A stretch of DNA of 50,240 bases from Omnitrophica WOR_2 bacterium RIFCSPHIGHO2_02_FULL_45_21 (GCA_001805575.1 MHGN01000063.1:1-50240), one strand, 5' to 3'; positions 32,457 through 50,099 are shown, counted from the first letter of the stretch. Notes: generated by a model from the sequence alone, not told the origin. A program made the numbers and translations.

Positions 32457-33340
32457 TTTATCTGAAGCTCCACCCAATCCGAAATGGACTTCCTCCCGCC
32501 CCGGTCGCCACTGGCGCCGTTCCAGACACTAAAGGCACAGAGTTTATTCTTCTCTGCTTGCCCCGCCGTTGGCGGGGCCTGTTCTAAATTAGCATCAACT
32601 TCCGGATCAGTGATAGCGATAGCGCGTTTAAATACCACCTGCCAGGTATTATCCGACCAAAAGCCTCTTCCCTGCACATTCTGAAGCTCTTTGGGGGTAA
32701 GAGTACCTACCCTAATGGCAATCAGGTCATTCACTGCCGATTTAGAAATGTCTTTAGAAACTACAAAAATCTCCTTTTCTTCAAACGGGTAATGATAATC
32801 CGCATAAACTTTTGTCTGCATCAGCTCATCGGTTGCGCCGGCCTTTTCCTGGCTCAACCAATACTCCCTATCCCGGCTTGCCTTCCAGTACCAGATATTG
32901 GACTTATGCATAAAACCCATCATAATAGTCGAGGCAGGTATGCCTTCTCCCATGGGGAACATCACCGCGCAGCCATCGGAAAAGGTATTGATTCCCGCAT
33001 CCCTATCCTCTGTATCGTCCTTCCAGCTGATGTAGAAATAGATATCTTTTTTATTGTGAAAGGCGCTTACTCTAAGCGGCGAAACCAAACTCTTGCCCCA
33101 GGGAAGCACAGTAACTTGCTGCATCAGCTCTATTTCTTCTCTGGGAAGGGATTGCCATATATCAGATACGCTAGCGGAAACATCGATTTCCTTATCTAGA
33201 AATTGAACCTCTAAAGTTACCTTCTTTGGCTTTTCAACTCTAACCGGAACTCCCCGAGAATGCCTTATTCCTATATAAACCAGCGCCGCGAACCCAATTA
33301 CCAATGCTATAGATATTAAGATAACGGTGGATTTTTTCAT
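32453..33340 (-). CDS. EbdC/NxrC-like heme b gamma subunit (DOMON EB_dh) with N-terminal anchor
   Basis: ISWKDDT, FSDGCAVMFP, IMMG (Met ligand), AFSVWNG...RGGRKSISDW (Lys ligand). Confidence 0.8.
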   Translation of the reverse strand: MKKSTVILISIALVIGFAALVYIGIRHSRGVPVRVEKPKKVTLEVQFLDKEIDVSASVSDIWQSLPREEIELMQQVTVLPWGKSLVSPLRVSAFHNKKDIYFYISWKDDTEDRDAGINTFSDGCAVMFPMGEGIPASTIMMGFMHKSNIWYWKASRDREYWLSQEKAGATDELMQTKVYADYHYPFEEKEIFVVSKDISKSAVNDLIAIRVGTLTPKELQNVQGRGFWSDNTWQVVFKRAIAITDPEVDANLEQAPPTAGQAEKNKLCAFSVWNGASGDRGGRKSISDWVELQIK

Positions 33341-33469
33341 TTAATGAGGCCGCAGCTTATGGAGCCTCCGCTTTGCGGGGAGGCGAACATAAGTTGTTTG
33401 GCCGAATTATCCCGAAGCGTGCGCAGAAAATTTAAAATAAATTTTCAAGCGTTTACGCGAGGAATGTCA
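33341..33469 (+). repeat. About 129-nt double-hairpin element, copy B
   Basis: TTAATGA-GGCC...CTTATG-GA-GCCTCC...GGAGGC-GAA-CATAAG...GGCC-GAATTATCCC...GAAAATTT/AAATTTTC...GGAATGTCA. Confidence 0.7.
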
Positions 33470-34002
33470 GATGCAATGAATTTTAAACATTCCTGCGCCG
33501 CTTGCGCATAAAAGCTGTCTTTATTCTTTGAAATTATCGCTCCGCTTATCTTCAGGAGCCCGGGATATAAATATTGCGCAAGAAATTTCTTCTGGGCCTC
33601 AACACAAATAGCAACTTTCTCCTTGTCCTCAAATTCCATAGCTCGTTGTGCCTTATAGACAAGATAATGCATGAATTCCAACTGGCAAGCCAAAGAATCT
33701 GCCCTGTCTTTATCCGGCTCTAAACCAAAGGCGCGATAAAAACCCATAATATCCGCTAAATGATTTACCCTTTGGAATTCGTTCTCCGCTAAATGCTCTG
33801 CCGCATAGAGCCAGATTGCTTCTAGCCGAAATAAGCGGTCGTATTCCTCAACTAATTTTCCCTTCTCAGAAGCTAATTCGGGAAAGAAAGCAAAAAAATC
33901 ATCTTGCGGATAAGAAAAGGCGACCGCGAATTTCTTATACTCAATTAACCTTAAGCTTTCCTCAGGTAACGCTGAATCTACGCACATTTCTTTCTTCATC
34001 AA
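33445..34002 (-). CDS. TorD/NarJ-family maturation chaperone (delta subunit)
   Basis: EYDRLF, LADIMGFYRAFGL, RADSLACQLEFMHYL; start uncertain (overlaps the beta subunit). Confidence 0.85.
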   Translation of the reverse strand: MMKKEMCVDSALPEESLRLIEYKKFAVAFSYPQDDFFAFFPELASEKGKLVEEYDRLFRLEAIWLYAAEHLAENEFQRVNHLADIMGFYRAFGLEPDKDRADSLACQLEFMHYLVYKAQRAMEFEDKEKVAICVEAQKKFLAQYLYPGLLKISGAIISKNKDSFYAQAAQECLKFIASDIPRVNA

Positions 34003-35122
34003 ATTCCTTGCGGATATAAATCGGCTCTTTCAGGGGAACCTTTACAATTTCCTTGCCCTGTTCATCATAGCCGGTAACAGAACCTTTCTCTATATCGCCT
34101 TCAACCTTAAAAGAGCGGGTAATCTTATCGGTAGAGCCCATGAGCATTAAAATCCCAATCAGCTTTTTATCCAGAGAGGCGCGGCGGTAATATTCTACCG
34201 CCTTCAGCGCCCCGGGGCCAAAGAGCTGAAGATTAAATTTATCCGGAACATTGATAGGAGGAATGTAATAGACATTAGGCTCTAAGCCGAATTGAGGATA
34301 CAAAGGAAGGGCAACTTTTTTAATATGGATAAGATAATCAAAGGGGTTATCTTCCCTTGCCTCATCGTATCTGCTCTTAAAACCAAAGAGCCGGATTTTG
34401 CCGATGCAATTGATCACGCACTGGGTCTGAATTCTTTCTTTGGCCGGGCTGTTTCCTTCTACACCCGGATAGCAGGCAATACATTTTTCCGATTTTCCGG
34501 TTAATTCCCTGAAAAAGGTTTTCTTATACGGACAGGCTTTTATACATTCCTGATATCCGCGGCATCTTTTCTGGTCAATCAAAACAATTCCGTCTTCTTC
34601 TCTCTTATAGATTGCCTTTCTGGAACAAGCGGCGACACAGGCCGGATAGGTGCAGTGATTACAGATTCTCTGCAAATAAAACATCCAGGGCTGATGGGGA
34701 ATCTTGATATAATCCTTATCCTTGATTGCGCTGCTTACCTCATCCTCTCCGAGATTGGGATAGAGATAATCATTTTCCTCGGGGTGCCAGCCTAAAACCT
34801 CTTCACCAAAGCCGGCTGATTCAAATATGGTTTTACCTTTGTACTTCCAGCCGCTCCAATCTTGCGGCCCTAACTTTTCCAAAAGCCGTACATCCCAGCC
34901 CAGAGGATAAAATCCCCAGGGCTTGGTCTCAACGTTGTTCCACCACATATATTCCTGGCCCTTGCCGGCGGTCCAGGCATTCTTACAGGCAAAGGTGCAG
35001 GTTTGGCAGGCAATGCATTTATTGGTATCAAAAATCCAGGCCGCCTGCTTTTTGGGTCGGCTCTCGGGATATTTATACTCCATTTTCCGATTGAGCTGCC
35101 AGTTATAAACCTTGTGGCTCAT
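33962..35122 (-). CDS. nxrB: NXR-type nitrate/nitrite oxidoreductase beta (Fe-S) subunit
   Basis: VYNWQLNR.M.Y.Y N-terminus; CIACQTCTFACK; WNNVETKP; RICNHCTYPAC; CRGYQECIKACPYKK; LPLYPQFGLEPNVYYIPP. Confidence 0.88.
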   Translation of the reverse strand: MSHKVYNWQLNRKMEYKYPESRPKKQAAWIFDTNKCIACQTCTFACKNAWTAGKGQEYMWWNNVETKPWGFYPLGWDVRLLEKLGPQDWSGWKYKGKTIFESAGFGEEVLGWHPEENDYLYPNLGEDEVSSAIKDKDYIKIPHQPWMFYLQRICNHCTYPACVAACSRKAIYKREEDGIVLIDQKRCRGYQECIKACPYKKTFFRELTGKSEKCIACYPGVEGNSPAKERIQTQCVINCIGKIRLFGFKSRYDEAREDNPFDYLIHIKKVALPLYPQFGLEPNVYYIPPINVPDKFNLQLFGPGALKAVEYYRRASLDKKLIGILMLMGSTDKITRSFKVEGDIEKGSVTGYDEQGKEIVKVPLKEPIYIRKEFDEERNVRRFSVT

Positions 35123-38100
35123 TTAACGAATTCTCCTCCCAGGAACTTCTTCATTGCCACATTCTCATACGACGGCCTAAAGCCCATTTTTGCCGGGCGC
35201 CAGAGTTTATTGCCATTAGTTCCCCCGTCTTCAGCTTTACTGACTTTGACAAATGACTCTTTCGGAGCGCCGGTGGTGCAGTGAACATCCGGAGCAAATC
35301 CTTTTCCAATCACCTGGCCAAAATACTCTTTTCTGGCTAAAGAATCGGTCATCAACGTAGGCCTAAGCCAGGCGCGGGTTGTGGACTGGTGCGAGCCATA
35401 CCTGAACATTGCCTGATAGCCGGTGCGGGAGTTTCTGGCTAATTTATCCGGGTTGGTTTCATGGCCTTCAACCGAACCATAAGTTGCCACATACATATTA
35501 AACCAGGAGCGGGCAACACCGCGCATGATTCCTAAATAATAACGGCAGCGCATCATTGCCCGATGCACCTTATAATCTTCGCCTTTTTTCTGCCAGCCGC
35601 GAAAAGGCCTATCCTCCGGGTCAGCATCTACCCAGACGTAATCTCCGTCTTCAATGCCTAACTCCTTGGCGTCAGCCGGATTGATATCAACATAGCCCTC
35701 GCCAACCCATGGTGAACGGTTATCCTTTCTATAGGGATCGCCAAAGGGGCCAAACCATAAAGAAAGCAGGTCAATATCTACCGGGGTGGTATGCGCGCCA
35801 TGGCGGTATTTGGGAGTTATATAAATGAGAGTAAAGCCGTCTTTTCTGCGGGGATGAACGGTCTTGGTAACCTCTCGCGGGCTGATTACCACATTACGCA
35901 CCTGGCGCACTTCTACCGACAGGTCATCTTTGGATAAACCGTAGCTTTCCGGGCCTTTAGGCCTGATTAAATCCTTAGCCCCGCAGACAATGGTATTGGG
36001 CTCATAAAAGGTAGCGTCCACCGGTTCGCGGTGCACCGGGATATTTTCGCCATGCTCAATAAATTCGTCTTCATCGCGATAAAATTCCAAACGGCCTGAC
36101 TTTGTATAATGCGGCTTATTTTCATTGCTCTGCTCCCAGCCCATAATCTTAGGATAGGTGCGGGTCATCAAAAGCGCCGGGATTCCTTCTTTGGCATTCT
36201 TTTCTAACTCTTCAATGTTGTATCCTTTCAGGGCGGTGGAAGCATCAATGATCCTCTGTAAATAAACCTCTAACTTATTGTCGTAGACAAACTTCCAATA
36301 ATCCTCAAATCTGGTATCCCCGGTTTCTTTGCTCAATGCCTTGGCCACTCCGGCAAACGTCTCTATATCTGCCCGGGTATCATGCAATCTCTCTAAAGGC
36401 GTGCGGGGATAAATCTGTAAAAATGGGTTGGTCACTGCCGCGGTCATATCCGGATATTTAAATTCTGCCCAGGAATCCACGGCAAAAACCACATCCGCGT
36501 ATTCGCAGGAAGCAGACCACCACCACTCATTCACTATCACGCATTCTATCCTGGGAAGAGTATTCACCACAAAATCGTGGTGCCACTTGAGGTTGCCTAA
36601 GATAGAATTGGAATTGCCGAACCAGAGAAATTTTGTCGGCGTGGAGATATGGGTTTTTCCGGTAAAAAGCTTATTGCCTACCCGCAAGGGCCTGTCGCCA
36701 TAGTTATAATAATGCGCGGATTCCATTTTGTAATATGCTTTCGCGCGCACCGGCTTTTGAGGGTCTAATTCAATATCAAAAGGGTCCTCGGTAATGTAAG
36801 TCGGCAGGCCGTTAAAATAGGCGCCGCGGTAATTGCCGGCAAAACTGCCGATATTGCCGCCATGATAACCGATATTTTTTGTCAAGGCGCAGACCAAAAA
36901 TATAGCCCGGTCTTTTAAGTCGTTGTTGAAAAAGTGATTCGGCCCCATTCCTACAGCGATAAGCACCTTGGATTTATTCGCGGCAATTTCTCTGGCTAAG
37001 CTTACTACCGCCTCTTTGCTGATATGGCAGATATCGCTGACCACCTCAGGGGTAAAATGCGAAGCATGCTCTTTCATTAAATCAAATACTGTTCTGACCT
37101 TTACCTTCTTGCCGTCAATGGTATCAACCTCAAACTCACCCTCTAAGGCAAAATCTTTGACTGCGCCGTAATCATCGCGGCTGATAACTACCACTTCATT
37201 CTTCTTCCCATCCCAGGCAACAAAATCGCTCCATTCATTGCGCAGTTTCTCTGTTACAATCTGTAAGTTCTGTTTTATCGACGGCGGGGGTTTTTCTCCT
37301 TCTTTAAGCACCTGGGTATTTTTTAATTCTTTTGGCTGGTAATCTTTAATCATATCCTGGGGTTTCAATAACTTCAGGGTATCCATCCTTACTAAAAGCG
37401 GTAAATCAGTTTGACCCTTCGCAAACTCATCATCGTAAAGCTTCTCCCCGATGATAAGATTCGCTATTCCTAAAGCAAGGGCGGTATCACTTCCCGGACG
37501 GATTAAAATAACCTCTTCTGCCTTATGGGAGGTTGCCTGGTATTCGCAGGCAATTGTGATAACCCTTGTTCCTTTGGCCCTGGCTTCGGATAGCCAGTGC
37601 GCGTCGGGCATTTTGGTGGCAATCCAGTTCATTCCCCAGTTGATGGCAACCTTGCAGTTTTCTACCGTGGCTAAGTCAAAATCGATGGTCTGCTGTCCGC
37701 AGACCATCGGATGTCCTGGCGGCAGGTCGGTATGCCAGGAATAGTTATCCCATCCTCTTGCCCCCAAGGCGTCGTTCTTATCCACACCCCTGATTTTTTC
37801 ATCTAAAAGGGCGGCAGAATTAGCGAAACGATAAAAACCAAAAAGGCGGGTTGCCCCTAAAAGGGGCATTCCGCCTCTGAATTTTAATACTTGAGTTCCC
37901 GCGCCCTTAGTTGCCTCAACCATTGCCTCATCATAGCCCTGGGCCTTGAGCAATTCTTTTCCCTTATCGCCAGAGTAAGTTGTGGCAATGTTAATCATGC
38001 TCTGCGCAACAATCTGAGATGCCTCTTCAAAGGAAACCCTGACAAAAGGCTCTTTCCCGCGGTTAAGATATTCGCCGGGTATACTGCCGTTTGGATTTCT

Positions 38101-38544
38101 GGGAAAACCGGCATTGCGCCACTCTAAGAATCCCTTACGCACACTGGGATATTTTACCCGGCGCGGGCCGTAAACTTTACGCACCATTGCCAAACCTTTC
38201 TGGCACAGGCGCGGATCCCATCTATGCGAGGCCTGATTTCCATAGATATCTTTGGCTTTGCCATAGCCGTAACTAGGGCCTATCTTGGTAACTACGCCAT
38301 TTTTTACGTAGGCCCTAAGCAGGCAGTTATGGGTATCATTGGGAGCGCAGAGAAAATGAAAGGTAGAATCATAGCGGAACTGGTCGCGGTATATCTTTTC
38401 CCAGTTTCTATCCGGATAATAGTCCAGGGGATTGTCAATCTCGGGGACAAATTTTAAAGCCGCAAGCAATGGCCTGCTTGCGGCTAATCCCGCAATGGTA
38501 GCTGCGGATACTTTTAAAAACTCTCTGCGGGTGATTCTTTTCAT
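35119..38544 (-). CDS. nxrA: Periplasmic NXR-type (DMSO reductase type II) nitrate/nitrite oxidoreductase alpha subunit
   Basis: Tat TRREFLK at start 38544; PDRNWEKIYRDQ; CAPNDTHNC (CxxxDxxxC FS0); NYSWHTD (Asp ligand); TPKYRH; FRYGSHQSTTR. Confidence 0.88.
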   Translation of the reverse strand: MKRITRREFLKVSAATIAGLAASRPLLAALKFVPEIDNPLDYYPDRNWEKIYRDQFRYDSTFHFLCAPNDTHNCLLRAYVKNGVVTKIGPSYGYGKAKDIYGNQASHRWDPRLCQKGLAMVRKVYGPRRVKYPSVRKGFLEWRNAGFPRNPNGSIPGEYLNRGKEPFVRVSFEEASQIVAQSMINIATTYSGDKGKELLKAQGYDEAMVEATKGAGTQVLKFRGGMPLLGATRLFGFYRFANSAALLDEKIRGVDKNDALGARGWDNYSWHTDLPPGHPMVCGQQTIDFDLATVENCKVAINWGMNWIATKMPDAHWLSEARAKGTRVITIACEYQATSHKAEEVILIRPGSDTALALGIANLIIGEKLYDDEFAKGQTDLPLLVRMDTLKLLKPQDMIKDYQPKELKNTQVLKEGEKPPPSIKQNLQIVTEKLRNEWSDFVAWDGKKNEVVVISRDDYGAVKDFALEGEFEVDTIDGKKVKVRTVFDLMKEHASHFTPEVVSDICHISKEAVVSLAREIAANKSKVLIAVGMGPNHFFNNDLKDRAIFLVCALTKNIGYHGGNIGSFAGNYRGAYFNGLPTYITEDPFDIELDPQKPVRAKAYYKMESAHYYNYGDRPLRVGNKLFTGKTHISTPTKFLWFGNSNSILGNLKWHHDFVVNTLPRIECVIVNEWWWSASCEYADVVFAVDSWAEFKYPDMTAAVTNPFLQIYPRTPLERLHDTRADIETFAGVAKALSKETGDTRFEDYWKFVYDNKLEVYLQRIIDASTALKGYNIEELEKNAKEGIPALLMTRTYPKIMGWEQSNENKPHYTKSGRLEFYRDEDEFIEHGENIPVHREPVDATFYEPNTIVCGAKDLIRPKGPESYGLSKDDLSVEVRQVRNVVISPREVTKTVHPRRKDGFTLIYITPKYRHGAHTTPVDIDLLSLWFGPFGDPYRKDNRSPWVGEGYVDINPADAKELGIEDGDYVWVDADPEDRPFRGWQKKGEDYKVHRAMMRCRYYLGIMRGVARSWFNMYVATYGSVEGHETNPDKLARNSRTGYQAMFRYGSHQSTTRAWLRPTLMTDSLARKEYFGQVIGKGFAPDVHCTTGAPKESFVKVSKAEDGGTNGNKLWRPAKMGFRPSYENVAMKKFLGGEFVK

Positions 38545-38599
38545 TCCTCTTTCGTAGCTGCAGAAATTATCTTTATGATGACAAATTTGGCGCACTTGT

Positions 38600-38919: not shown

Positions 38920-40521
38920 TTAGGATACTTTACCTAAAAATACCTGCCCTAATTCCTGCCCGCTGCTCATTGATTCTAAGACAACCAAAATATCCCTTAA
39001 CGTATCCTCAGTGTGGTCGCTGCGCTCTTCTTCTTGTCTTAGGATATCTGATATGCAAAGGAGAATTTTATTTCTGTCTTGAGTTATATTATCTTGAGCG
39101 CAGGATGTTTGGATATATTCCTTAATTCTTTCTGAAGAAGGAGTTATTCCTGAACTTACCATTCTACCTATCTCTTGCCACTCCCCAGCAAGGTTAACTT
39201 GCAGCAGGGACAGTCCCCGCAGCGGACTGTCCCTAAACATTCCGCTTAAATTTGTTACCGCCTGGGCGACTATAGGGAGAGAGCGGAAGTCAATACCGCC
39301 TAAGCTTCTAACCGCTTCTTCCTGTTTGCTGCTTTCAGTTTTAGCCGGCGAATTGGTAAGAGGGCTACTCGCAGCGTTATTCCACTCCACAGTTGTTCCA
39401 TTCAGAGAATTCAGGTCTTCAACAAAAAGCGAAAACTCGTTGTTCCCATTTCTGGATATTTTAATAATAAAATGTTTTCCTGATAAGAGTTCATCCGATA
39501 GTCTATAATTGCCAGTCTCTCGTCCTATCTGCATTGGCTGATCTAACTGCATATTGTAGGCGTCGCCGACAGGATAGCTTTTATCGTCTTTATAACGCTG
39601 GAAATTGATACTATTTCTTGTCACAGAAATTTTATAAGCAAATGATCCGGCTATAATCCAAACATCTCCCGTAAAGAGGGTTTCTAAAATGGTGGCGCCT
39701 GGCTTACCGAGCCTAATCTCTGACTCCCCTTTTCCTTCTCTCCGCATACCATCTTCTAAAGCAGATTTTTCTTTTTTTACTCCTTTCTGCCCCGTTTCTT
39801 CTGTTTCGAGTTTCTTATCGACTAACTCTAAATTAGACGAAGCATCGGTAACCTCAATAAAATCGACTCGTCCATTTTGAACAACTGCGTATCCGGCACG
39901 GTCGTGCCCGGCAAAGACGATATGATGATTAGGCAGAGGCTGCCAATGCCAATTTCTATCTCTTCTTGGCGAATGTCCAACAATAAGCTGAGCTCGAGGC
40001 TGACCCATATTATTAAGAAATTCCTGGACATCTCTATCATCGTAACTGTCTTGATACCTTCCCCATTCTGCCTGCTCAACAATCGGATTACCTTCATTTC
40101 CAACATCTACATTTTGTATTTCAGCAAAATTCGCATTTGTGATAGGACCCCCGTGTACCGCAATAAAACCATTACCCATTACCATTAAAGGACTCGCTTT
40201 AATAAAATTTTCATAAGCGGTAATATAATCTTCACCATATAGCTCTTGAAGTTTTTCACTATACAATATTCCTTGCCAGACGCGATCCTGACCCTTTCCC
40301 TTAGAGAATAAATCAGAAAGATAATCATGGTTTCCGAGCACGTAATAAACGTTATCGGGATGCTGAATTTTTAAATCCATAATAAACTGCATAATTTCAA
40401 CTGATGAATCCATCTCTGTTAAATTAACTTCACTATGTACCGCATCGCCTAAGATAACTAAAACTGCCTCGCCTTTTTGAATCTTGCTTAAGTTATTATT
40501 CTTATTAAGTATCTCGCGGCC
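38920..40521 (-). pseudogene. 5'-truncated C-terminal part of a large modular protein: metallophosphoesterase + FHA + GGIDF-type C-terminus
   Basis: Frame extends upstream of 40413 through VILGDAVH to an in-frame TGA with no start; has GNHD, VHGG and VGHS but lacks motif I; FHA GR...S.KH...DLNSLNGT; ASSP and GGIDFR. Confidence 0.7.
39206..39234. repeat. In-frame perfect palindrome AGGGACAGTCC-N7-GGACTGTCCCT
   Basis: 11-bp arms read directly; encodes RDSPLRGLSL. Confidence 0.7.
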
Positions 40522-41456: not shown

Positions 41457-42524
41457 TCAAGTTTGCGGCTGATAAATGCAATACGGCTCTTCTTCCTGAA
41501 AATCTCCGCTGCGCCAATAGGCGCGGGCGCGGCAGCCGCCGCAGACCAGCTTAAACTCACAGGCACCACATCTTCCTTTTAATTTTGCGCTATCCCTTAA
41601 GTCCTGAAAAAGTTTGCTCTCAAACCAGACGCTTTTAAAATCCTCTTTTCTTAAATCCCCGGCCTTAACCGGCAGGTAGCCGCATCCGAATACCTCTCCT
41701 TTATAAGAAACAAAACAAACCCCCTGCCCGGCCAGGCAACCCTTGGTGATGGCGCTAAAATTATCGCTCGCGCAAGGCAATTTCTTTTTCTCTTTTGCCA
41801 AACGTTGGCGCAAGACCCGGTAATAGTGCGGGGCGCAGGTCGCCTTTACCCGTATGGTGGAATGGGACTGAAAATCATACAGGCGGTTGAATGCCTCTTC
41901 GTATTCCTGCGCTGAAATCTCATCCCCTTCCAATGATTTTCCTCTGCCTACCGGAACCAGAAAAAATACATGATAGGAAACTGCGCCCTGTTTAAGCGCA
42001 AAGTTACCCATTGCCTCCAATTCAGCTAAATTCTTTTTGGTTATCGTAGTGTTTATTTGCAGAGGTATTCCTGCCTTTTTAAGATTATTGATTCCGGCTA
42101 AGCTCTTTTCAAATGCTCCCGGCGCTCCGCAAAAATTATCATGGCTTTTAGCATTTGAACCATAAATAGACACCGCAACTAATGCGGTTTTATTCTCCTT
42201 TAAGCGCATCGCGCTATCTAAGCTTACCAGCGAGCCATTAGTGGCCAGGGTGCTCTTTAGGCCTAATTGGCTGGCATAGTGGATAAGTTCGTAGATATCT
42301 TCGCGTAATAATGCCTCTCCGCCTGAAAATACAACGATCGGTTTTGAAAAAGATGCGGCTGTCTTTAGAAATCTTTTGGCTTCTTGGGTAGTTAGTTCTT
42401 CCGGCGAGCGCTTCTTCTCTGCCTTGGCCCGGCAGTGCGGGCATTCTAAGTTACAGGCGCGCGTGGCCTCCCAGAATATCAAACGAAGACTTGAGCTCAT
42501 TGTATATTTTGCCGGATGCGTCAA
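41457..42524 (-). CDS. ahbD: Radical SAM/SPASM heme b synthase
   Basis: LRLIFWEATRACNLECPHCRA, FFLVPVGRG, ATCAPHYYR, GCLAG, CGACEF..VCGGCRARAY. Confidence 0.85.
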   Translation of the reverse strand: MTHPAKYTMSSSLRLIFWEATRACNLECPHCRAKAEKKRSPEELTTQEAKRFLKTAASFSKPIVVFSGGEALLREDIYELIHYASQLGLKSTLATNGSLVSLDSAMRLKENKTALVAVSIYGSNAKSHDNFCGAPGAFEKSLAGINNLKKAGIPLQINTTITKKNLAELEAMGNFALKQGAVSYHVFFLVPVGRGKSLEGDEISAQEYEEAFNRLYDFQSHSTIRVKATCAPHYYRVLRQRLAKEKKKLPCASDNFSAITKGCLAGQGVCFVSYKGEVFGCGYLPVKAGDLRKEDFKSVWFESKLFQDLRDSAKLKGRCGACEFKLVCGGCRARAYWRSGDFQEEEPYCIYQPQT

Positions 42525-43462
42525 GAAATCAGGAACGCTAAACCTAAAAGAATTCCAAAGGTGAGGGTTAAGGCAATGCTCAAGGCATTTGCCGGAAGGA
42601 GCTTCTCTACTTCATTGTAATTCTTTAAAGCAATCCTGCAGGCCCTGAAGGCTAAGATAAGGGTAAAAAATACAATTGCTGCGGATTTCGGCAGGATATT
42701 TTTTGTGAGCAGAATAAAAGTAAAAAGATAAATCAGCGCGAGCAGGGCCGCATAGGTATAACTTGCTCTTTTCTTTCCCAGGCGCACCACCCAGTTGGTT
42801 TTGCCGGTAACCTTGTCTGCCTCGTAGTCGGGAATTTCATTGAGCCACAAAACGCTTCCGGCCAAAAGCCCCATCAGGCAGCCAATAAGAATAATTTCCA
42901 AATCCACGCTCTGCGCCTGGACATAATAGACGCCGCTTAACATTATCGGCCCAAAGGCAATGGCTACGGATAATTCTCCCAACCCCTTTTTAGAAAGATT
43001 GATTTTAGGATGGATATAGCCTACCGCCAGAAAAACCCCGCTTACTCCCAGCGCTAATACCGGCAAGCCTCTCAAAAAAGCCAAATACACCCCGATCATT
43101 GAACCGATGGCAATAAATACAGTCCCTCCTAAAAGTAAGGATTTTGGGCTGAGGGCTCCCTCTTGAATCACCCGGGAACCTCCGCTAAAAGGGGTAGGGG
43201 TAAGATTTATATTATCCGTTCCGGAGAGATAATCAAAATAATCGTTGAGTGAGCTGGTGCCAAAATGGATAAGCACTAAACCCATTGCCGAAAGCAGCCA
43301 TAGGCCAAAGTCAAGCGCGCCTTTTCTTTGATAGACAATTGCCCCGCCTAAGAAAGAAACTGCCACGGTTAAGGCAATAAACGGCGGGCCTAAGACCCTC
43401 AACCAGGCCCTTACCCAGGCGGTAGGCGAGCGTGAAATAAGCTGACGGATTTTGACCGGCAT
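42521..43462 (-). CDS. menA: UbiA-family prenyltransferase, MenA-like
   Basis: NDYFDYLSGTD, TPFSGGSR, GLGE, NEIPDYEAD...GK. Confidence 0.8.
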   Translation of the reverse strand: MPVKIRQLISRSPTAWVRAWLRVLGPPFIALTVAVSFLGGAIVYQRKGALDFGLWLLSAMGLVLIHFGTSSLNDYFDYLSGTDNINLTPTPFSGGSRVIQEGALSPKSLLLGGTVFIAIGSMIGVYLAFLRGLPVLALGVSGVFLAVGYIHPKINLSKKGLGELSVAIAFGPIMLSGVYYVQAQSVDLEIILIGCLMGLLAGSVLWLNEIPDYEADKVTGKTNWVVRLGKKRASYTYAALLALIYLFTFILLTKNILPKSAAIVFFTLILAFRACRIALKNYNEVEKLLPANALSIALTLTFGILLGLAFLIS

Positions 43463-43535
43463 TCAAGTGTGCAGGTGAAAAATGTTACTCTAATTATTCT
43501 GTGTAACGTTTAATCTGAGCTTTTAAATGGAAATA

Positions 43536-43712
43536 TTAGAATAAAGTAGATACTATATAGCTGTCTTTTTTCTTCATTGCCGGAGACACACCCACTGCTG
43601 TTTTCAGGGTAAACTCCTCCATTGAGGCGGTCCTGGGGCAGAGATAATTCTTTAATCCCTTTTCCTTAAGGCCTCCTCTTGTTCCTGTAGGTTCAGATTT
43701 TCTTTTTGACAT
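43536..43712 (-). CDS. 58-aa peptide, candidate RiPP precursor
   Basis: Below the ORF-track cutoff; GAAAGGAG RBS 7 nt before ATG; MSKRKSEPTGTRGGLKEKGLKNYLCPRTASMEEFTLKTAVGVSPAMKKKDSYIVSTLF*; YxxP motif; directly after PqqD. Confidence 0.65.
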   Translation of the reverse strand: MSKRKSEPTGTRGGLKEKGLKNYLCPRTASMEEFTLKTAVGVSPAMKKKDSYIVSTLF

Positions 43713-43738
43713 TTTTCCGCTCCTTTCTTTAACTCCGT

Positions 43739-44113
43739 TTAGAATTTCACGATACCTTTCTTAAAAAAATACCCCACCTGTTTTTTTACATCATCTAAAA
43801 TTCTTGCGTAATTTTTCCGCTTAAATTCCTTAGCCAGTAATTGAGCGATACCGAGAAGAGAATTCCTGCCGTTACAGAGCAAGAATATCCTGGCTGCGCT
43901 GAAATTAAGAATTAAGGGAAGAGCGAAATCTTCTTTGGAAAGGATAACAATCTGCTCGCGCTCGCCATCCTTTCTCCAACTTAAGCCCCCCGCCTTCTTC
44001 GGCTTGCGGCTGCGGCTAGCGCCCCGCCTACGGCGGGGTGGCTTATGGCTGCGGCTAGCTGAAGCCGCACCATTGCCCTCTGGCTTATTGGCAGTGGATA
44101 TTCTCTGAAACAT
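43739..44113 (-). CDS. PqqD family / RiPP recognition element protein with repeat-derived N-terminal insert
   Basis: LNFSAARIFLLCNGRNSL..IA..L...F......I.DDV......F...GIV is the PqqD/RRE pattern. Confidence 0.8.
   Translation of the reverse strand: MFQRISTANKPEGNGAASASRSHKPPRRRRGASRSRKPKKAGGLSWRKDGEREQIVILSKEDFALPLILNFSAARIFLLCNGRNSLLGIAQLLAKEFKRKNYARILDDVKKQVGYFFKKGIVKF
44001..44087 (-). repeat. One full (42 bp) and one partial copy of the TAAGCC-bounded hairpin unit
   Basis: GGCAATGGTGCGGCTTCAGCTAGCCGCAGCCATAAGCC matches 18497-18534 at 36 of 38 positions. Confidence 0.85.
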
Positions 44114-45113
44114 AGGGCACCGTTTTATGCTTGATAAGGTCTGACATCATATTCAAGCTGTTAATAAACTCAATTACCTCAGGCCTATGCCAGCCCTCTC
44201 TTAAGAAATGATTCCAGATATACTCAAGTTTCTGGCTCTTTAAATCCCCATAGGTAAAGGGAAGCAGGAGGTCTAAACGACAGGCCCCCTGGGGCGTAAT
44301 AATACACCAGATATTTGGAGGAGCGCTCCTTGTTTTAACATATGTCTTTAAAGTTTCCTTTTCCCGGGAAGGGGCAATAATAGTCAATTTATCGGTGTAG
44401 ATTTTGGCTGCCTCATCTAACAAAGCATAAAATTCCACATACTCTTCTGGCCCCAGTTTAATCTGCTCAAAATTCTTCACTGCCCTTCCGGTCAAAACCA
44501 GCATATCGGTAACAAAATATTCTAAACCCATTTCCACGCATAATCCGATAACGCCTTTGACATCGCGGAAATTTATTCTCGTAGGGACAAAGGAAAGGTG
44601 GGTGCGGATGTTATTTTGTTTTAAATAGCGGATTGCGGCAACGGACTTCTCCCAGCTTCCGCTGAGCCCCCTTACTTTATCGTGGACGCCAGGGCTTGCT
44701 CCGTCAATACTAATCTGCACCCATTTGACTTTTAAATCCGCTAATTTCCCGGCGGCATTGCGGTCAATCTGCGTCCCATTGGTAATCAGCCCTACTTGAA
44801 TCTTTTTTTGGCGCAGCCGCTCAATAAGAACCGGCCAATCCTCTCGTAAAAGAGCTTCGCCTCCGGTAAGGTAAACCTCAAAGACCTTCATTTTGGCTAA
44901 TTGCTCAATAATATTCAGCGCTTCTTTGGTAGTTAATTCATTTTCGCTCTTCTGGTTGGAATTATAATAACAGTGGACGCAGGAAAGATTACAGCGATCA
45001 GTCAGCTCCCACAAAGTAAATACCGGCGCCTTAAAATACTTGGGCAATAAGCCGTCTTTGTAGAGGCGGTTTATCCTTCCTTGATACTGGGTTAAGAAAC
45101 TCGCTCTTTCCAT
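44085..45113 (-). CDS. Radical SAM enzyme, PqqE/MftC-like N-terminus, with degenerate SPASM/twitch region
   Basis: APVFTLWELTDRCNLSCVHCY, LTGGE, QISIDG; only two Cys in the C-terminal WCIITPQGACR segment. Confidence 0.8.
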   Translation of the reverse strand: MERASFLTQYQGRINRLYKDGLLPKYFKAPVFTLWELTDRCNLSCVHCYYNSNQKSENELTTKEALNIIEQLAKMKVFEVYLTGGEALLREDWPVLIERLRQKKIQVGLITNGTQIDRNAAGKLADLKVKWVQISIDGASPGVHDKVRGLSGSWEKSVAAIRYLKQNNIRTHLSFVPTRINFRDVKGVIGLCVEMGLEYFVTDMLVLTGRAVKNFEQIKLGPEEYVEFYALLDEAAKIYTDKLTIIAPSREKETLKTYVKTRSAPPNIWCIITPQGACRLDLLLPFTYGDLKSQKLEYIWNHFLREGWHRPEVIEFINSLNMMSDLIKHKTVPYVSENIHCQ

Positions 45114-46099
45114 ACGTTTGCCTCAGGCGTCAGGTCTACCAGGTCCAAAAGCGCCTTACGGTATTGTGAATCGGATAAGCTCTTTAGCCTGTCTCTTGCC
45201 GAGTTAAGATAAGATAGGGTGATTTTCTTAGTGCGGCTGATGGCATCAGAATTACTCAACTCTACTTTTATTTTTTTAAAGCAGCCATTGGTTTTTGACT
45301 TAAGTAAACTTTCTAAGCGATACCTCTTGTTTTTACTTGAAAACTTCAGCAAGTCTAACAGCGGCAAAGTCATCTCGCCCACCGCGATATCCTGGCCGGG
45401 CGACTTTCCCAATCTTGACTTTGGCGCGGCTATATCAAGGTAATCGTCAATAATCTGAAAGGCGACTCCAAAGTTTAAACCGTATGCCTTTAGCGCGTTT
45501 TGCAGAGGACGTGGAGAATCGGATAAAATTGCTCCTGCCTGGCAGGAGGCAGCAAAAAGGCTGGCGGTCTTTTTCTTCACAATCATAATATAGCGCTCTT
45601 TAAGCAGGGAAAAATTATCCCTCTCCACCACCTGGGTAAGCTCGCCTTCACACATACTTTTGGTGGCTGAGCTGATACAATCCAGGATATCCGTATTATT
45701 GCAGGTTGCGATTAACTTAAAAGCCAAGGAATAAAGATAATCCCCCAAAGCAATTGAAACATCTGCTCCCCAGCGGGAATTTACCGTGGGGTTATTATGG
45801 CGAAGGAGAGAATGGTCAATGACATCATCGTGAATGAGCGAGGCCATATGGATAAGTTCGATAGCGCAGGCAAGATTAATTAACTGCCGGCTGATAACTT
45901 CCGGGCTCCTGCCGACTGTGGCTTTGGCAGAAAGAATGAGCATTGCCGGCCTGAGCCTTTTGCCCGGGGACTTTAAGAGAAAACGATTGAGCTTAAGGAT
46001 GGACTCGTTTTTTGTTTCCTTAAGCGATACTTCCAGGACCTTTTCAACCTGGTCAAGCTCTCTTCTAATAGGTTTATAAATCTCTTTTAGCCGCATCAA
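45092..46099 (-). CDS. Long-chain polyprenyl diphosphate synthase
   Basis: GKRLRP, ASLIHDDVID (Ala five residues before FARM), KKTA, FQIIDDYLD, GK...D. Confidence 0.93.
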   Translation of the reverse strand: MMRLKEIYKPIRRELDQVEKVLEVSLKETKNESILKLNRFLLKSPGKRLRPAMLILSAKATVGRSPEVISRQLINLACAIELIHMASLIHDDVIDHSLLRHNNPTVNSRWGADVSIALGDYLYSLAFKLIATCNNTDILDCISSATKSMCEGELTQVVERDNFSLLKERYIMIVKKKTASLFAASCQAGAILSDSPRPLQNALKAYGLNFGVAFQIIDDYLDIAAPKSRLGKSPGQDIAVGEMTLPLLDLLKFSSKNKRYRLESLLKSKTNGCFKKIKVELSNSDAISRTKKITLSYLNSARDRLKSLSDSQYRKALLDLVDLTPEANVWKERVS

Positions 46100-47184
46100 A
46101 ATTTATCGTAGTAGATGTGTATGTCCTGGACGCCTTTTTTGGCCAAGACCTTAAGCGCCGCATCAATCATCGGGGGAGGGCCGCAGAGATAGGCCTCAGT
46201 ATCCCCGTTAGAATGCATATGCCGCTCAACTGCCTGGGTGACAAATCCGGTCTCACCACTCCATTTATCATCCGGCTTGGGCTCGGATAAAACCGGAAAA
46301 TAGCTAAATCTGCCGGAGGACTCTCCTTCCAGCGCCATTAATTCCTCGGTATAGAAAAGGTCTTTTTTGCTTCTTGCCCCAAAGAAGTAACTTGCCTTAC
46401 GCGGCATCCCTTTTTCTCTTAAGTGATAGAGTATGGAACGAATGGGCGCCATGCCGCATCCGCCGCCAATGCAGACTATCTCACGTTCTGAATCTTCTCT
46501 TAAATAAAAATCTCCGTAGGGCCCGGTTACGATTATTTCATCTTGAACATCTAGAACCTCATGAATATAGCTTGAGCATAGCCCGCCGGGAACAAGGCGC
46601 ACAATGAGCTCTAAAATATTCTTCTGCGAAGGAGGCGAGGCAATAGAATAAGCCCTGAACTCTTCAATCTCAGGAATCCTGAATTGGATATACTGGCCCG
46701 GCTTAAAATTAATTTCATTAGGCTCTGATAATTGCATTACCACATACTTGATGTCACTGGTAACATCGGTAATCCGCAATATCCTGGTTTTGTATTCCTT
46801 TGCCTGCAATAAATCCTCGGAAATCAAAACCTCAATATCATTTTTTACCTTGACCTGGCAGGCTAAGCGAATGCCCTTAAGCCTCTCTTCACGGTTGACG
46901 AAAACCTCTTCCGTAGGCAGGATGTGGCCAGCGCCGCTCAATACCTCCACCTTGCAATAGCCGCAGGTTGCCTTTCCGCCGCAGGCAGAAGGAATAAAAA
47001 TCTTGTTTTGAGCGAAATAGCTTAAGAGGCTGTCGCCCCCGTTTACCGCGATGATTTTTTCCTTATTAATGGTAATCTTACATTCGCCATAGGTAACTAA
47101 TAAGCGCTCGGCAATAATGAGCACGATAGCGATGACTAACAAAATTCCATTCATTAAAAACACGGGTAATATTGTATGCAACAT
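46096..47184 (-). CDS. nqrF: NqrF-like NADH-oxidising [2Fe-2S]/FAD subunit
   Basis: N-terminal TM; SACGGKATCGYC, RLACQ, RAYSIAS, GGGCGMAP, YLCGPPPM, YYDKF. Confidence 0.85.
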   Translation of the reverse strand: MLHTILPVFLMNGILLVIAIVLIIAERLLVTYGECKITINKEKIIAVNGGDSLLSYFAQNKIFIPSACGGKATCGYCKVEVLSGAGHILPTEEVFVNREERLKGIRLACQVKVKNDIEVLISEDLLQAKEYKTRILRITDVTSDIKYVVMQLSEPNEINFKPGQYIQFRIPEIEEFRAYSIASPPSQKNILELIVRLVPGGLCSSYIHEVLDVQDEIIVTGPYGDFYLREDSEREIVCIGGGCGMAPIRSILYHLREKGMPRKASYFFGARSKKDLFYTEELMALEGESSGRFSYFPVLSEPKPDDKWSGETGFVTQAVERHMHSNGDTEAYLCGPPPMIDAALKVLAKKGVQDIHIYYDKF

Positions 47185-47186
47185 AT

Positions 47187-47795
47187 TTACTGAAGGGTTA
47201 TAATCCCGGCAAAGCCCATAAAGGCAAGGGCCATTAAACCGGCAATAATCATCGTAATCCCGGGGCCGCGCAGGCCCGGCGGAATATCAGCGCTTAGCAT
47301 CATCTTTTCTTTTATTGCCGCCATAAGAATAATGGCCAATGCCCAGCCGACTGATGTGCCGAATGAATAAAGGACGGTCTGGATAAAATTGTAACTGCGC
47401 ACCACCATAAATAAGCAGACCGCCAGGACAATACAGTTAACCGTAATCAAGGGCAAGAAAATTCCAAAGGATGCCTGAAGCGGCGGGAAGAACTTCTCAA
47501 TGAGCATTTCCAGAAACTGGACCGTGGCCGCGATAACAATGATAAAAATAAGAAAGGATAAAATATCGGAATGCATTGGCACCAACAGCTTCCAGTATAT
47601 CGGCCAGTTAATGATCGCGGTTAAGGTTACCACAAAAACGATTGAAACACCCATACCGAGGGCGGTCTTGTAATTACGCGAGATAACGATAAACGGGCAC
47701 ATCCCCAGGATATAAACCAGGGCGATGTTATGGGTAAAGATTGAGGCGATTAAAATAGTCAGGGGGTTCATCAGATTCCATTCTACTGGATTCAT
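47187..47795 (-). CDS. nqrE: NqrE/RnfA family subunit
   Basis: LGMCPF, LPLITVNC, MALAFMGF. Confidence 0.85.
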   Translation of the reverse strand: MNPVEWNLMNPLTILIASIFTHNIALVYILGMCPFIVISRNYKTALGMGVSIVFVVTLTAIINWPIYWKLLVPMHSDILSFLIFIIVIAATVQFLEMLIEKFFPPLQASFGIFLPLITVNCIVLAVCLFMVVRSYNFIQTVLYSFGTSVGWALAIILMAAIKEKMMLSADIPPGLRGPGITMIIAGLMALAFMGFAGIITLQ

Positions 47796-47798
47796 CTT

Positions 47799-48428
47799 CT
47801 ACTCCGTCTTCTTGGCAATGGTTCTAAAAATCCATAAATAAACGCCTAAGAGAAAAAACGCGCCCGGGGCAATAGTCAAGATTGACCAGTTCATCCAGGC
47901 CTGCGGCATTACCTTTAACCCAAAGAGTGTGCCAAAGCCCATGGGTTCTCTAATAAGCGCCATTAAGAGCAGCATAAAGCTATAGCCGATACCACATCCT
48001 GCGCCGTCAAGAAAAGACATCCACGGCCCGTTTTTAATCGCGAACGCTTCCGCCCTGCCCATAAGAATACAGTTGGTAATAATCAGGCCTACATAGGGGC
48101 CCATTGACTCGCTTATCGGCGGGAAATACGCCTTCAGCACCCTGTCCACACAGATAACAAAGGTAGAGATAATCACCATATAGGCAAGCATTCTCACCCT
48201 GGAGGGTATAGCATTGCGAAAGAAAGAAACGAATAAAGAGCTAAAGGCGGTGCAGAAGGTAACCCCGATACCCATAGCAATGGCGTTATCCATTTTATTG
48301 GTAACTGCCAGCATTGAGCAAATGCCTAAGACCATACAAAAGGTAGGATGATCATTCCACATCCCTGTGCTAAGGACCTTAAACCATTTGCTCTGCCTGA
48401 AACTTCTTTTAATCTGCTTCTTGGGCAT
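47799..48428 (-). CDS. nqrD: NqrD/RnfE family subunit
   Basis: LGICSMLAVT, YVGLIITNCILMGRAEAFA, APGAFF. Confidence 0.88.
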   Translation of the reverse strand: MPKKQIKRSFRQSKWFKVLSTGMWNDHPTFCMVLGICSMLAVTNKMDNAIAMGIGVTFCTAFSSLFVSFFRNAIPSRVRMLAYMVIISTFVICVDRVLKAYFPPISESMGPYVGLIITNCILMGRAEAFAIKNGPWMSFLDGAGCGIGYSFMLLLMALIREPMGFGTLFGLKVMPQAWMNWSILTIAPGAFFLLGVYLWIFRTIAKKTE

Positions 48429-48436
48429 TCCTTATC

Positions 48437-49012
48437 TTAACTTTTCAGTAAACTCAGATTCTTCTCAATACTTTCGTTCAATAATTTCTCTAACGCCCTA
48501 CTGGTGCCGGTAGCGCCGGTAATCGCGTCTACCTCATTATTTGCCCTGGCATGCCCCTGCGCCGTAAAGATTAATCTGGGAATAACTTCTTTATTTTTAA
48601 ACTGGCCTAAATATTCTTTTTCTACTATCCTCGCCCCCAGGCCGGGAGTTTCCTCCTGATGCAGGATTTTAATCGTGCGGATTGTCTTAAGGTCGGAATT
48701 GATGCTAGCTATGCCGCGTATCGGCCCCCACAGGCCGGGGCCTTCGAATTTGAAAGCCACCGCCCCGTCAGCTCCTCTGTAGAAGGCATATTTGTCTTTT
48801 TGCAGGACTTCCACGTTTTGCTCAAATAATCCCAGGACCGCTTCCTTACTGCCATAGGGAACCTCCAGGGCATCAAGAATTGATGATTTTAATTTCAGTT
48901 CTTCGTTCTTTTTAATCTGCGGCTCGGTAATCTTACTCAAACCCACTAACATTATGCCTGAGACCGTGCCCATAACGATGACAAAGATTATAATTCTCAA
49001 CGCGGCTTTCAT
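48437..49012 (-). CDS. nqrC: NqrC/RnfG FMN-binding subunit
   Basis: GPGLWGPI, ETPGLG, VDAITGATGTS flavinylation motif. Confidence 0.88.
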   Translation of the reverse strand: MKAALRIIIFVIVMGTVSGIMLVGLSKITEPQIKKNEELKLKSSILDALEVPYGSKEAVLGLFEQNVEVLQKDKYAFYRGADGAVAFKFEGPGLWGPIRGIASINSDLKTIRTIKILHQEETPGLGARIVEKEYLGQFKNKEVIPRLIFTAQGHARANNEVDAITGATGTSRALEKLLNESIEKNLSLLKS

Positions 49013-49022
49013 TTTTCCTTAT

Positions 49023-50099
49023 TTATTTCTTCAGCGCGGGATATTTTACATCTAAGACCAGGTGGTCAATCAAAGGCGCGAAGACATTCAGAAGCAATAT
49101 ACTAAACATAACTCCCTCTGTGTATCCGGATAAACCCCGAATCAAAACCACCAAAAATCCGAACATAATGCCGCCCAGCCATTTGCCGGCTTTGGTAAAG
49201 GGACAGGTAACCGGGTCAGTAAGCATAAAGAATGTTCCCAGCAGCAATCCTCCGTTTAAGATTTGAAACAGAGGCGGGGCAAATTTTTGCGCGGCAAAAA
49301 GATTGCCTAAGAATGAAAAAAATAATACCGATAAAATAGCGGCAAGCGGAAGCCGCCAATTGCTGACTTTGGCTAAAATCAGGAATAAACCGCCTAAGAT
49401 AATTCCGATACGAAAGGTCTCGCCGATACAACCTAAAGAATTACCCAAAAATAAATCTAAGTAACCGGTGAACAACTTCTCGTTCTTAAACAGGGCCAGC
49501 GGCGTTGCCTGGGTGGTGGCATCAGCGGAAAATTTTAAAAAACCGCCTAAGCCCTGATGAAAAGGCTGGCTCCAGGAAACCGTCATGCCTTGAGGAAAAG
49601 CAACGCTGAGGAAAATTCTACCCACAATTGCCGCGTTAAAGACATTTCTTCCGGTTCCGCCAAAGGCCTCCTTGCCAAAAATCACTCCAAACATCACTCC
49701 CACTGCCACCATCCACAAAGGCACTGTTGGCGGCAGAATCAAAGGAAATATCAAACCGGTAACTAAGAAGCCTTCGTGAATTTCTTTTTTTCTAACCACC
49801 GCGAAGGCAACCTCTACCAGCCCGCCGAATATATAGGAAACGGCAATAACCAATAAAACCCTCAAGCCCCATAAATAGACAGCGGCAATAGTGGCCGGCA
49901 AGAGGCCGATTACCACAAAGCTCATAAAGCGCTTGATATCAATATGGTCAACGATGTGCGGTAAAGCGGTAACCTGAGCCGTGCCAAAGAAGAACTCATC
50001 CGTGGCATTAATTACCGGCTTAAAGCGCTTAAGAAGCTTATTTTGCTCACTTAACTTATTAAGATTTTCAAATATGTCTCTTAAAAACTTCATCCTCAA
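49023..50099 (-). CDS. nqrB: NqrB/RnfD family subunit
   Basis: DIKRFM, HEGFLVTG, KEAFGGTGRNVFN, TQATPL FMN site, GCIGET, FMLTDPVT. Confidence 0.88.
   Translation of the reverse strand: MRMKFLRDIFENLNKLSEQNKLLKRFKPVINATDEFFFGTAQVTALPHIVDHIDIKRFMSFVVIGLLPATIAAVYLWGLRVLLVIAVSYIFGGLVEVAFAVVRKKEIHEGFLVTGLIFPLILPPTVPLWMVAVGVMFGVIFGKEAFGGTGRNVFNAAIVGRIFLSVAFPQGMTVSWSQPFHQGLGGFLKFSADATTQATPLALFKNEKLFTGYLDLFLGNSLGCIGETFRIGIILGGLFLILAKVSNWRLPLAAILSVLFFSFLGNLFAAQKFAPPLFQILNGGLLLGTFFMLTDPVTCPFTKAGKWLGGIMFGFLVVLIRGLSGYTEGVMFSILLLNVFAPLIDHLVLDVKYPALKK

Follow-up and report, generated by a model that had tools for sequence, protein, structure and literature searches.

A cassette of four adjacent genes from Omnitrophica WOR_2 bacterium RIFCSPHIGHO2_02_FULL_45_21 (GCA_001805575.1) may encode a pathway in which a ribosomally made peptide is first modified by a radical S-adenosylmethionine (rSAM) enzyme and then joined to a polyprenyl chain. 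The cassette lies in a 50,240-nt stretch of DNA (MHGN01000063.1:1-50240), referred to here as the window, and spans ~2.6 kb. It comprises genes for the rSAM enzyme, a stand-alone PqqD-like RiPP recognition element (RRE; RiPP, a peptide made on the ribosome and modified after its translation), a short precursor-like peptide and UbiA2, a MenA-like polyprenyltransferase of the UbiA family. That these four genes form a real and coherent unit is very probable. As to its function, the reading that we favour, with a probability of about one half, is that the cassette produces a ribosomal peptide which the RRE guides and the rSAM enzyme modifies, and that UbiA2 prenylates the conserved core of this peptide or some part of the core. 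Throughout the text loci are labelled L and genomes G: G000 is the window's own genome (90% complete), L039 lies in G061 (97% complete), L030 lies in G422, and L002 is the contig of L029. UbiA2 denotes the cassette-specific MenA-like paralogue, and UbiA1 the MenA-type paralogue of the lineage, which is paired with a polyprenyl diphosphate synthase.

Conservation and distribution of the four-gene cassette

The peptide gene starts 26 nt past the PqqD-like gene, and a GGAG sequence ends 7 nt 5' of its ATG. The encoded peptide contains KNYLCPR, a motif of the Y-x-x-P type, and terminates in DSYIVSTLF; these elements, together with the coordinates, gene overlaps and ribosome-binding site given in the first-pass annotation of the window, are all present in the sequence. 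The same annotation had taken this open reading frame (ORF) for a hidden gene, and by the evidence of its conservation it is a real protein-coding gene. Searching 5.8 billion proteins brought up 45 homologue clusters of 53-98 residues, whose alignment contains 25 invariant columns, Y23 and P26 among them. Y-x-x-P is kept in 45/45 clusters, the N-terminal ~22 residues, a basic leader-like stretch, vary freely, and the C-terminal half, 30 residues long, is near-fixed (ASMEEFTLKTAVGVSPAMKKKDSYIVSTLF in the window peptide), so that the conserved core for which an alignment had been proposed does exist. Over ten loci, the last seven codons show synonymous changes only.

The peptide family is isolated and has few members, and strong purifying selection acts on it, since a hidden Markov model (HMM) scan of 1.84 billion representatives returned just 7 peptide clusters at E<=1e-10, the eighth match being a 1890-residue protein aligned to the lysine-rich leader only, and since distant members retain the pattern ...GVSPAMKKK..Y..S.LF along with Y-x-x-P. 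The latter motif is kept in 8/8 retrieved sequences, including five further-diverged representatives; divergent members (P0096-P0098) end in ...YVVSVLF. No Pfam or NCBIfam model matches the peptide, and a search of the ESM Atlas gave no usable match.

Ten other peptide loci are available for comparison (L002, L030, which derives from species-representative genomes, L039 and the metagenome contigs L031-L037), with two loci derived from a scan of genome contigs and seven, mostly short, from a scan of metagenomes. The order rSAM, PqqD-like gene, peptide is kept in all ten, the rSAM gene being either complete or truncated where the contig stops, and rSAM identity across loci is 60-89%. In nine of the ten (L030-L037 and L039) UbiA2 stands directly after the peptide and is 52-93% identical to the window copy. 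At least three different contexts surround the cassette: in L030, cobalamin genes accompanied by a TonB-like ORF on the upstream side and rpsU on the downstream side; nqrF-like, UbiA1 and synthase genes upstream in L037; and nqrF followed by the synthase in the window. The adjacency is retained in L030 and L039 without nqr or synthase genes nearby.

Among 41 relatives, only G002 possesses the rSAM gene (78% identity; next best 33-37%), the peptide and UbiA2 (75%; next best 41%). In a sample of 401 genomes from the phylum the peptide occurs in two (G000 and G061), and a class sample likewise gave 2/401. UbiA2-grade sequences (>=53%) were found in the phylum sample in G000 and G061 only, 20 other genomes carrying UbiA1-grade copies alone (33-43%), and over the 41- and 401-genome samples together UbiA2-grade copies (>=52%) are confined to peptide-bearing genomes. 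The cassette is therefore a rare accessory trait.

Family sizes also agree, with 45 clusters for the peptide, 48 for the rSAM enzyme and 47 for UbiA2. The rSAM family comprises clusters at >=58% identity, with none further down to E 1e-40, and the UbiA2 family comprises clusters at >=52%, after which identity drops to <=48%. As a substitute for read contexts, a shared longest-contig size may be taken as an indirect sign that peptide and UbiA2 are co-located: 19 peptide clusters have exactly the same longest-contig size as a UbiA2 cluster and 15 as an rSAM cluster, and none shares this size with the 73 lower-identity UbiA clusters listed. Where the contig is at least 4 kb long, 15/20 peptide clusters have such a counterpart among the UbiA2 clusters. 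The proposals that rSAM, PqqD and peptide act as a trio, and that the UbiA gene is tied to it, are thus borne out by gene order and by the shared rare distribution, and for UbiA2 also by its position in a clade of its own (see below).

Predicted properties of the RRE and the radical SAM enzyme

The PqqD-like protein scores below the cut-offs of both relevant family models (PF05402, 20 bits against 23.4, E 9e-4; TIGR03859, 25.6 against 46), and its assignment as an RRE, made in the first-pass annotation, is upheld by fold and not by these scores. A profile built from 10 orthologues and compared with the PDB had PqqD as its top three matches (best E 0.0065). The AlphaFold2 (AF2) model consists of three strands and three helices, with residues ~40-124 confidently folded, and its top Foldseek matches are PqqD (5sxy, 3g2b) and leader-bound lasso-peptide B1 RREs (6jx3, 5v1v). 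A PqqD-type RRE fold is therefore supported clearly at the level of the modelled structure despite the sub-threshold family scores. Co-folding of RRE residues 40-124 with the peptide gave a score of 0.02 and a mark of 0.32, and is counted neither for nor against binding. The N-terminus is variable, basic and modelled as disordered; ahead of the folded domain it carries a variable Arg/Lys-rich insertion in the window (43985-44050, residues ~20-43) and in L031 (L031:562-954), which is short or missing in other orthologues and is likewise modelled as disordered.

The best NCBIfam match of the cassette rSAM enzyme is MftC (TIGR03962), at 140.4 bits against a cut-off of 265, followed here for comparison by PqqE (TIGR02109), at 103 bits against 381; every NCBIfam match falls under its cut-off. 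Its AF2 model (predicted local distance difference test, pLDDT, 78.5) has SkfB, PqqE, BlsE and SuiB as top Foldseek matches, with MoaA and anSME also close; the match to SkfB (6efn) has E 6.9e-17 and a TM score of 0.68. The modelled fold thus places the enzyme among the peptide and cofactor maturases. A Pfam scan detected no PF13186 SPASM domain, and the CX3CX2C cysteines C41, C45 and C48 are the sole invariant cysteines of the family (41/41 sequences), other cysteine columns being conserved in 38/41 (C192), 40/41 (C270), 33/41 (C278) and 23/41 (C341). To judge from the alignment, the enzyme is without a conserved SPASM or twitch auxiliary cluster. The earlier description of a PqqE/MftC-like enzyme therefore stands as regards best match and fold, and does not stand as regards the SPASM domain and the auxiliary-cluster cysteines; because these cysteines are not conserved, the enzyme is not filed here as PqqE/MftC-type, and its chemistry is likely limited to reactions independent of an auxiliary cluster.

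Loss of the SPASM cysteines would also suit a scheme in which the small ORF is an accessory or membrane-associated protein, and the rSAM enzyme and its PqqD-like partner act on a lipid or on a prenylated quinone made by UbiA2. The C-terminal half of the peptide shows the kind of conservation seen in structural proteins, no protease belongs to the cassette, and the lipid-modifying enzyme GDGT-MAS (7tol) is among the Foldseek matches of the rSAM model, at rank 28. We nevertheless regard such a lipid substrate as very improbable: the partner has the fold of an RRE, whose known role is leader-peptide binding; the leader-like N-terminus of the peptide is variable apart from Y-x-x-P; the nearest structures and sequences of the rSAM enzyme are peptide maturases; and the peptide follows the RRE gene directly, the typical order of a RiPP cluster.

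UbiA2, its paralogue and the possible acceptors

All of the best NCBIfam matches of UbiA2 are MenA models. The window copy remains below every MenA cut-off (89.7 bits against 102.15 for TIGR00751, menA), whereas UbiA1 copies, at 120-147 bits, exceed the menA threshold of 102. UbiA2 and UbiA1 are 37-43% identical, and in a tree UbiA2 forms its own clade (support 100/99) on a long branch apart from UbiA1; the alignment shows a conserved N-terminal extension and a loop between transmembrane helices 4 and 5 (TM4-5) unlike that of UbiA1. Two Asp-rich motifs that bind diphosphate and Mg are the mark of the UbiA superfamily, and both (NDYFD...D and N-E-I-P-D-Y-E-A-D) are intact in all aligned UbiA2 and UbiA1 sequences. 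Since L037, G061 and G422 carry both paralogues, UbiA2 is not simply the MenA of the lineage. G000 and G002 yielded no UbiA besides UbiA2, and there is no UbiA1 anywhere in the 90%-complete G000.

UbiA1 followed by the synthase is a fixed pair in the class, the synthase being adjacent in 8/9 UbiA1 loci and also in L052 and L037. The pair was located in L052 (G034), L069, L072, L041, L040, L067, L070, L071, L073 and L037 (L037:441-2365), often directly 3' of nqrF, whose copies in L052, L069 and L072 are 71-73% identical. Only three loci, namely the window, L002 and L037, have the synthase beside the cassette. It had been counted as part of the system in the first-pass annotation, and this assignment has to be given up, because the adjacency is restricted to one sub-lineage and elsewhere the synthase is the partner of UbiA1; likewise, of the genes whose synteny was in question, peptide, PqqD, rSAM and UbiA2 stay together and the synthase does not. 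The 4-nt overlap of nqrF and synthase in the window, with no UbiA1 between them, gives the impression that UbiA1 was cleanly deleted, and the window synthase accordingly looks like a remnant of an nqrF-UbiA1-synthase module, given that it is the fixed partner of UbiA1 elsewhere and that UbiA1 is gone here. Its best matches are of the HepT, solanesyl and octaprenyl types, all under their cut-offs; it is likely a supplier of the prenyl donor and a neighbour by lineage history.

In the pathway that we favour, the peptide is translated, its conserved coding gene being the observed part of the scheme. The RRE would bind the leader, probably near Y-x-x-P, and hand the peptide to the rSAM enzyme, as fold and precedent suggest; leader binding and core modification are steps predicted by analogy. 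With its SAM cluster only, the rSAM enzyme would abstract a hydrogen atom from a residue in the invariant C-terminal half. Because an auxiliary cluster appears to be missing, the favoured reaction is one that can proceed without a second path for electrons, for example epimerisation, or else a modification of the C-terminal Phe or of the invariant Tyr. UbiA2, in the membrane, would then move a polyprenyl chain, provided by the neighbouring or another genomic long-chain synthase, to an aromatic group of the modified core that acts as acceptor, a step suggested by conserved adjacency, by co-distribution and by the divergence of the paralogues. What results would be a prenylated peptide, or a fragment of it, anchored in the membrane. 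Since the core is near-invariant and the conserved cassette set includes no protease, exporter/transporter or immunity gene, a function for the cell itself (cofactor, anchor or structural component) would be expected, and not a diversifying antimicrobial.

Several points weigh against this pathway. In G002, a LexA-like ORF comes next after the peptide, on a 2.2-kb contig, and UbiA2 (75%) lies on another contig, 3' of a glycosyltransferase gene and 5' of an AhbD-like gene. Few independent lineages have been sampled, about four to five, because L033-L035 are near-identical and L030 is close to L039. All peptide-cofactor maturases that the rSAM enzyme resembles use auxiliary clusters, which are not conserved here, and the cassette contains neither a protease nor a transporter. 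The L030 orthologue of UbiA2 passes TIGR00751 (114 against 102 bits), a small-molecule naphthoate acceptor is possible for an enzyme so MenA-like in sequence, and UbiA2, as the sole UbiA of G000 and G002, could perform an ordinary quinone job there. No UbiA-family enzyme is known to accept a peptide; a literature search brought up no paper in which UbiA enzymes are linked to PqqD/RRE/radical SAM peptides, and a literature search for the peptide motifs found none either. Finally, the biochemical steps are all deduced from sequence, fold and context.

Some of these observations would also be explained if UbiA2 were an ordinary quinone prenyltransferase isozyme of the 1,4-dihydroxy-2-naphthoate (DHNA) type, the trio making an unrelated RiPP or acting as a regulator or assembly factor in quinone or respiratory function, and the link between them reflecting co-regulation or a common history beside the nqr-UbiA-synthase module. 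The exclusively MenA-type matches of UbiA2 and the L030 orthologue agree with this, as do the catalytic Asp-rich motifs common to UbiA2 and UbiA1, the NQR-type complex next door to the sole UbiA of G000 and G002, the position of the cassette beside an nqrF/synthase module in L037 and the window, and the separate contigs of trio and UbiA2 in G002. Against it, the adjacency persists in L030 and L039 where neither nqr nor synthase is near, and UbiA2-grade sequences keep company only with the peptide in the two genome samples. A second plain MenA would moreover be redundant in the three sources that also carry UbiA1 (L037, G061 and G422), and 0/4 cassette genomes have a DHNA or futalosine pathway, although uptake of the substrate is possible. 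On balance we consider an ordinary isozyme, the chief rival to the favoured pathway, unlikely.

The origin of the quinone head group deserves separate attention. MqnA/D, MqnC, MenB, MenD, UbiD and UbiE/MenG gave no match above cut-off in G000, G002, G061 and G422 (0/4 each), and control genomes did give matches to the head-group models. MqnA/D is present in 0/41 relatives, although 27/41 carry a UbiA gene, and MenB and MqnA/D in 0/5 cassette-less genomes with UbiA1 plus synthase that are 92-99% complete; the genomes scanned for MqnA/D and MenB include G034, G089, G140, G199 and G260, all without a match above cut-off. Prenyltransferases without a recognised head-group source are noted in a published survey of the phylum (PMC10066038). 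MenA-type prenyltransferases and the synthase, often with NQR-type genes, are thus present despite the gap in head-group genes. Because cassette-less UbiA1 genomes share this gap, it is a trait of the group, met by uptake or by an unknown route. The absence of men and mqn genes from the window, to which the first-pass annotation drew attention, accordingly holds for the whole genome, but it holds equally for cassette-less UbiA1 relatives and is not diagnostic; the argument that the peptide must be the head group because head-group genes are lacking is rejected as an argument, not as an idea.

That idea, which the first-pass annotation had put forward as a peptide-derived respiratory cofactor, is a special case of prenylation of a piece of the core. 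The peptide would be a sacrificial precursor like PqqA or MftA, from which an aromatic head group is excised and polyprenylated by UbiA2, giving a membrane redox carrier for the NQR-type chain. An invariant core is what cofactor precursors have, the layout of rSAM, PqqD and peptide is that of pyrroloquinoline quinone (PQQ) and mycofactocin, none of the head-group enzymes scanned reached its cut-off in the four cassette genomes, and G000 and G002 have lost UbiA1 but retain nqr and synthase. The generality of the head-group gap means, however, that the cassette does not fill it, and rarity (2/401 in each of two samples) is a poor fit to a core respiratory cofactor. Furthermore, no peptidase, oxidase or other tailoring gene belongs to the conserved set, a 30-residue invariant stretch is far longer than a two-residue head group needs, and the rSAM enzyme appears to have no auxiliary clusters. 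The redox carrier survives as a minority case that we hold to be distinctly unlikely. If true, PQQ and mycofactocin would be joined by a third redox cofactor derived from a peptide, the first to be membrane-bound, with a head group that a cluster-poor rSAM enzyme cuts out of the invariant Tyr/Phe-containing C-terminus.

Gene neighbourhood, related systems and significance

The cassette is part of an uninterrupted run of minus-strand genes, extending from nqrB-to-nqrF-like genes at 50099 down to a methyltransferase gene at 40776 (Table 1). Besides the overlap of nqrF and synthase mentioned above, synthase and rSAM genes overlap by 22 nt, and rSAM and PqqD-like genes by 29 nt. Promoter and terminator scans gave background levels and are not used as evidence. 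The data sets listed as containing window DNA from 42400 to 46200 are metagenomes of groundwater and soil, and no RNA data set is listed for this interval.

Table 1. Genes of the minus-strand run in the window, in order of decreasing coordinate.
Feature	Coordinates	Strand	Basis of assignment
nqrF	46096-47184	-	Part of nqrB-to-nqrF-like genes, 50099 down to 46096
Polyprenyl diphosphate synthase, long-chain, 335 aa	45092-46099	-	PF00348 polyprenyl_synt, 226 bits
Cassette radical SAM enzyme, 342 aa	44085-45113	-	PF04055 Radical_SAM, 103 bits
Stand-alone PqqD-like RRE, 124 aa	43739-44113	-	PF05402, 20 bits, sub-threshold; predicted fold
Precursor-like peptide, 58 aa	43536-43712	-	Homologue clusters; no Pfam or NCBIfam family
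UbiA2, MenA-like UbiA-family polyprenyltransferase, 313 aa	42521-43462	-	PF01040, 98.4 bits against cut-off 34.2
AhbD-like rSAM/SPASM protein	41457-42524	-	Heme b synthase model, 466 bits
ICMT/PEMT-like membrane methyltransferase, 225 aa	40776-41453	-	Weak ICMT/PEMT/DUF1295 matches

Two genes downstream of UbiA2 were considered as further tailoring enzymes and set aside. The AhbD-like rSAM protein is unsupported as a second maturase, as it scores 466 bits on heme b synthase, slightly under the cut-off of 500, and is adjacent to UbiA2 in the window's sub-lineage only; judging by its sequence, it most likely serves heme synthesis as a heme b synthase. Contig C51 of G000 (L074:4402-9900) carries hemA, hemC, cobA-hemD, a gene for the N-domain of siroheme synthase and an NirJ1/AhbC-like rSAM gene, which suggests a siroheme-dependent heme route in this genome. 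A 671-residue open frame in L035 that would fuse UbiA2 to AhbD is an artefact, with N bases at the junction (L035:1900-1915). The methyltransferase was considered for methylation of a prenylated peptide C-terminus; 27/41 relatives carry it, most of them cassette-less, it was not found in the cassette-bearing G061, and it counts among the common genes of the order, unrelated to the cassette.

At the upstream end of the run, the scores of the nqr-like operon (46096-50099, minus strand) fall between the Nqr and Rnf families: NqrF is above its cut-off (305 against 295), NqrE-like and NqrB-like subunits are under the Nqr cut-offs, and a B/D-type subunit is above the RnfD subfamily cut-off. Further along the same strand, the window contains an operon for a type II DMSO-reductase-family enzyme (32453-38595) related to the NarG/ethylbenzene dehydrogenase/NXR type, with a 1158-residue alpha subunit bearing a twin-arginine-like N-terminus, an Fe-S beta subunit, a chaperone and a heme b gamma subunit, every member scoring under the curated cut-offs. 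A 497-residue protein (38920-40413, minus strand) combines calcineurin-like metallophosphatase and FHA domains with a long C-terminal region that has no family match.

No described system of the same composition was found in Pfam, NCBIfam or the literature, in agreement with the first-pass annotation, in which the arrangement was not recognised; measured against radical-SAM/RRE systems of the RiPP type, what is new is a partner from the UbiA family, combined with loss of the auxiliary clusters. The PQQ core (PqqA/PqqD/PqqE) likewise unites a small peptide containing a conserved region, a stand-alone chaperone of PqqD fold and an rSAM enzyme, and the best structural matches of the cassette RRE and rSAM models include PqqD and PqqE. 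Unlike PqqE, however, the cassette rSAM enzyme is far below the PqqE cut-off and has no SPASM cysteines, the cassette peptide resembles no family model, and a membrane UbiA stands in place of PqqB/C, homologues of which were not searched for. Mycofactocin biosynthesis (MftA/B/C) provides the best NCBIfam match, MftC, and the same combination of RRE, rSAM enzyme and a peptide with a near-terminal aromatic residue. MftA ends in Val-Tyr, whereas the cassette peptide ends in ...YIVSTLF; the MftC match, with 140 bits, stays under its cut-off of 265, the auxiliary-cluster cysteines are absent from the cassette enzyme, and no MftD/E/F-type genes occur in the conserved set. The twitch and SPASM maturases SkfB, SuiB, CteB and anSME are the closest solved folds and perform radical SAM chemistry on peptides; they differ in having one or two auxiliary Fe-S clusters, where in the cassette enzyme only CX3CX2C is invariant (41/41).

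For UbiA2, the nearest relatives are the MenA/UbiA prenyltransferases, with which it shares the PF01040 signature, the Asp-rich motifs and its best matches, and from which the window copy departs in scoring under every MenA cut-off, in belonging to a separate clade and in occurring only with the peptide cassette. Lipidation of a ribosomal peptide with an isoprenoid has parallels in ComQ/ComX, in cyanobactin prenyltransferases of the PagF-type ABBA class and in lanthipeptide prenyltransferases. The known peptide prenyltransferases are soluble enzymes of polyprenyl-synthase-like or ABBA fold that use short C5-C15 donors; the candidate in the cassette, in contrast, is an integral-membrane enzyme of the UbiA family near a long-chain synthase. 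Reports on peptide prenylation systems include PMC13731918 and PMC12715784.

If the favoured pathway is correct, the cassette would represent the first known case of an integral-membrane UbiA-family enzyme in a ribosomal-peptide pathway, and would add a new class of tailoring enzyme to RiPP biology and a new class of acceptor to UbiA enzymology. Should UbiA2 act on the peptide, a route to long-chain polyprenylated peptides would be available. The bacteria concerned have MenA-type enzymes and a synthase yet no head-group pathway. The near-invariant core, the missing genes for export and immunity, and the respiratory neighbours of the cassette point to a membrane function that would serve the cell itself in these ultra-small uncultured bacteria.

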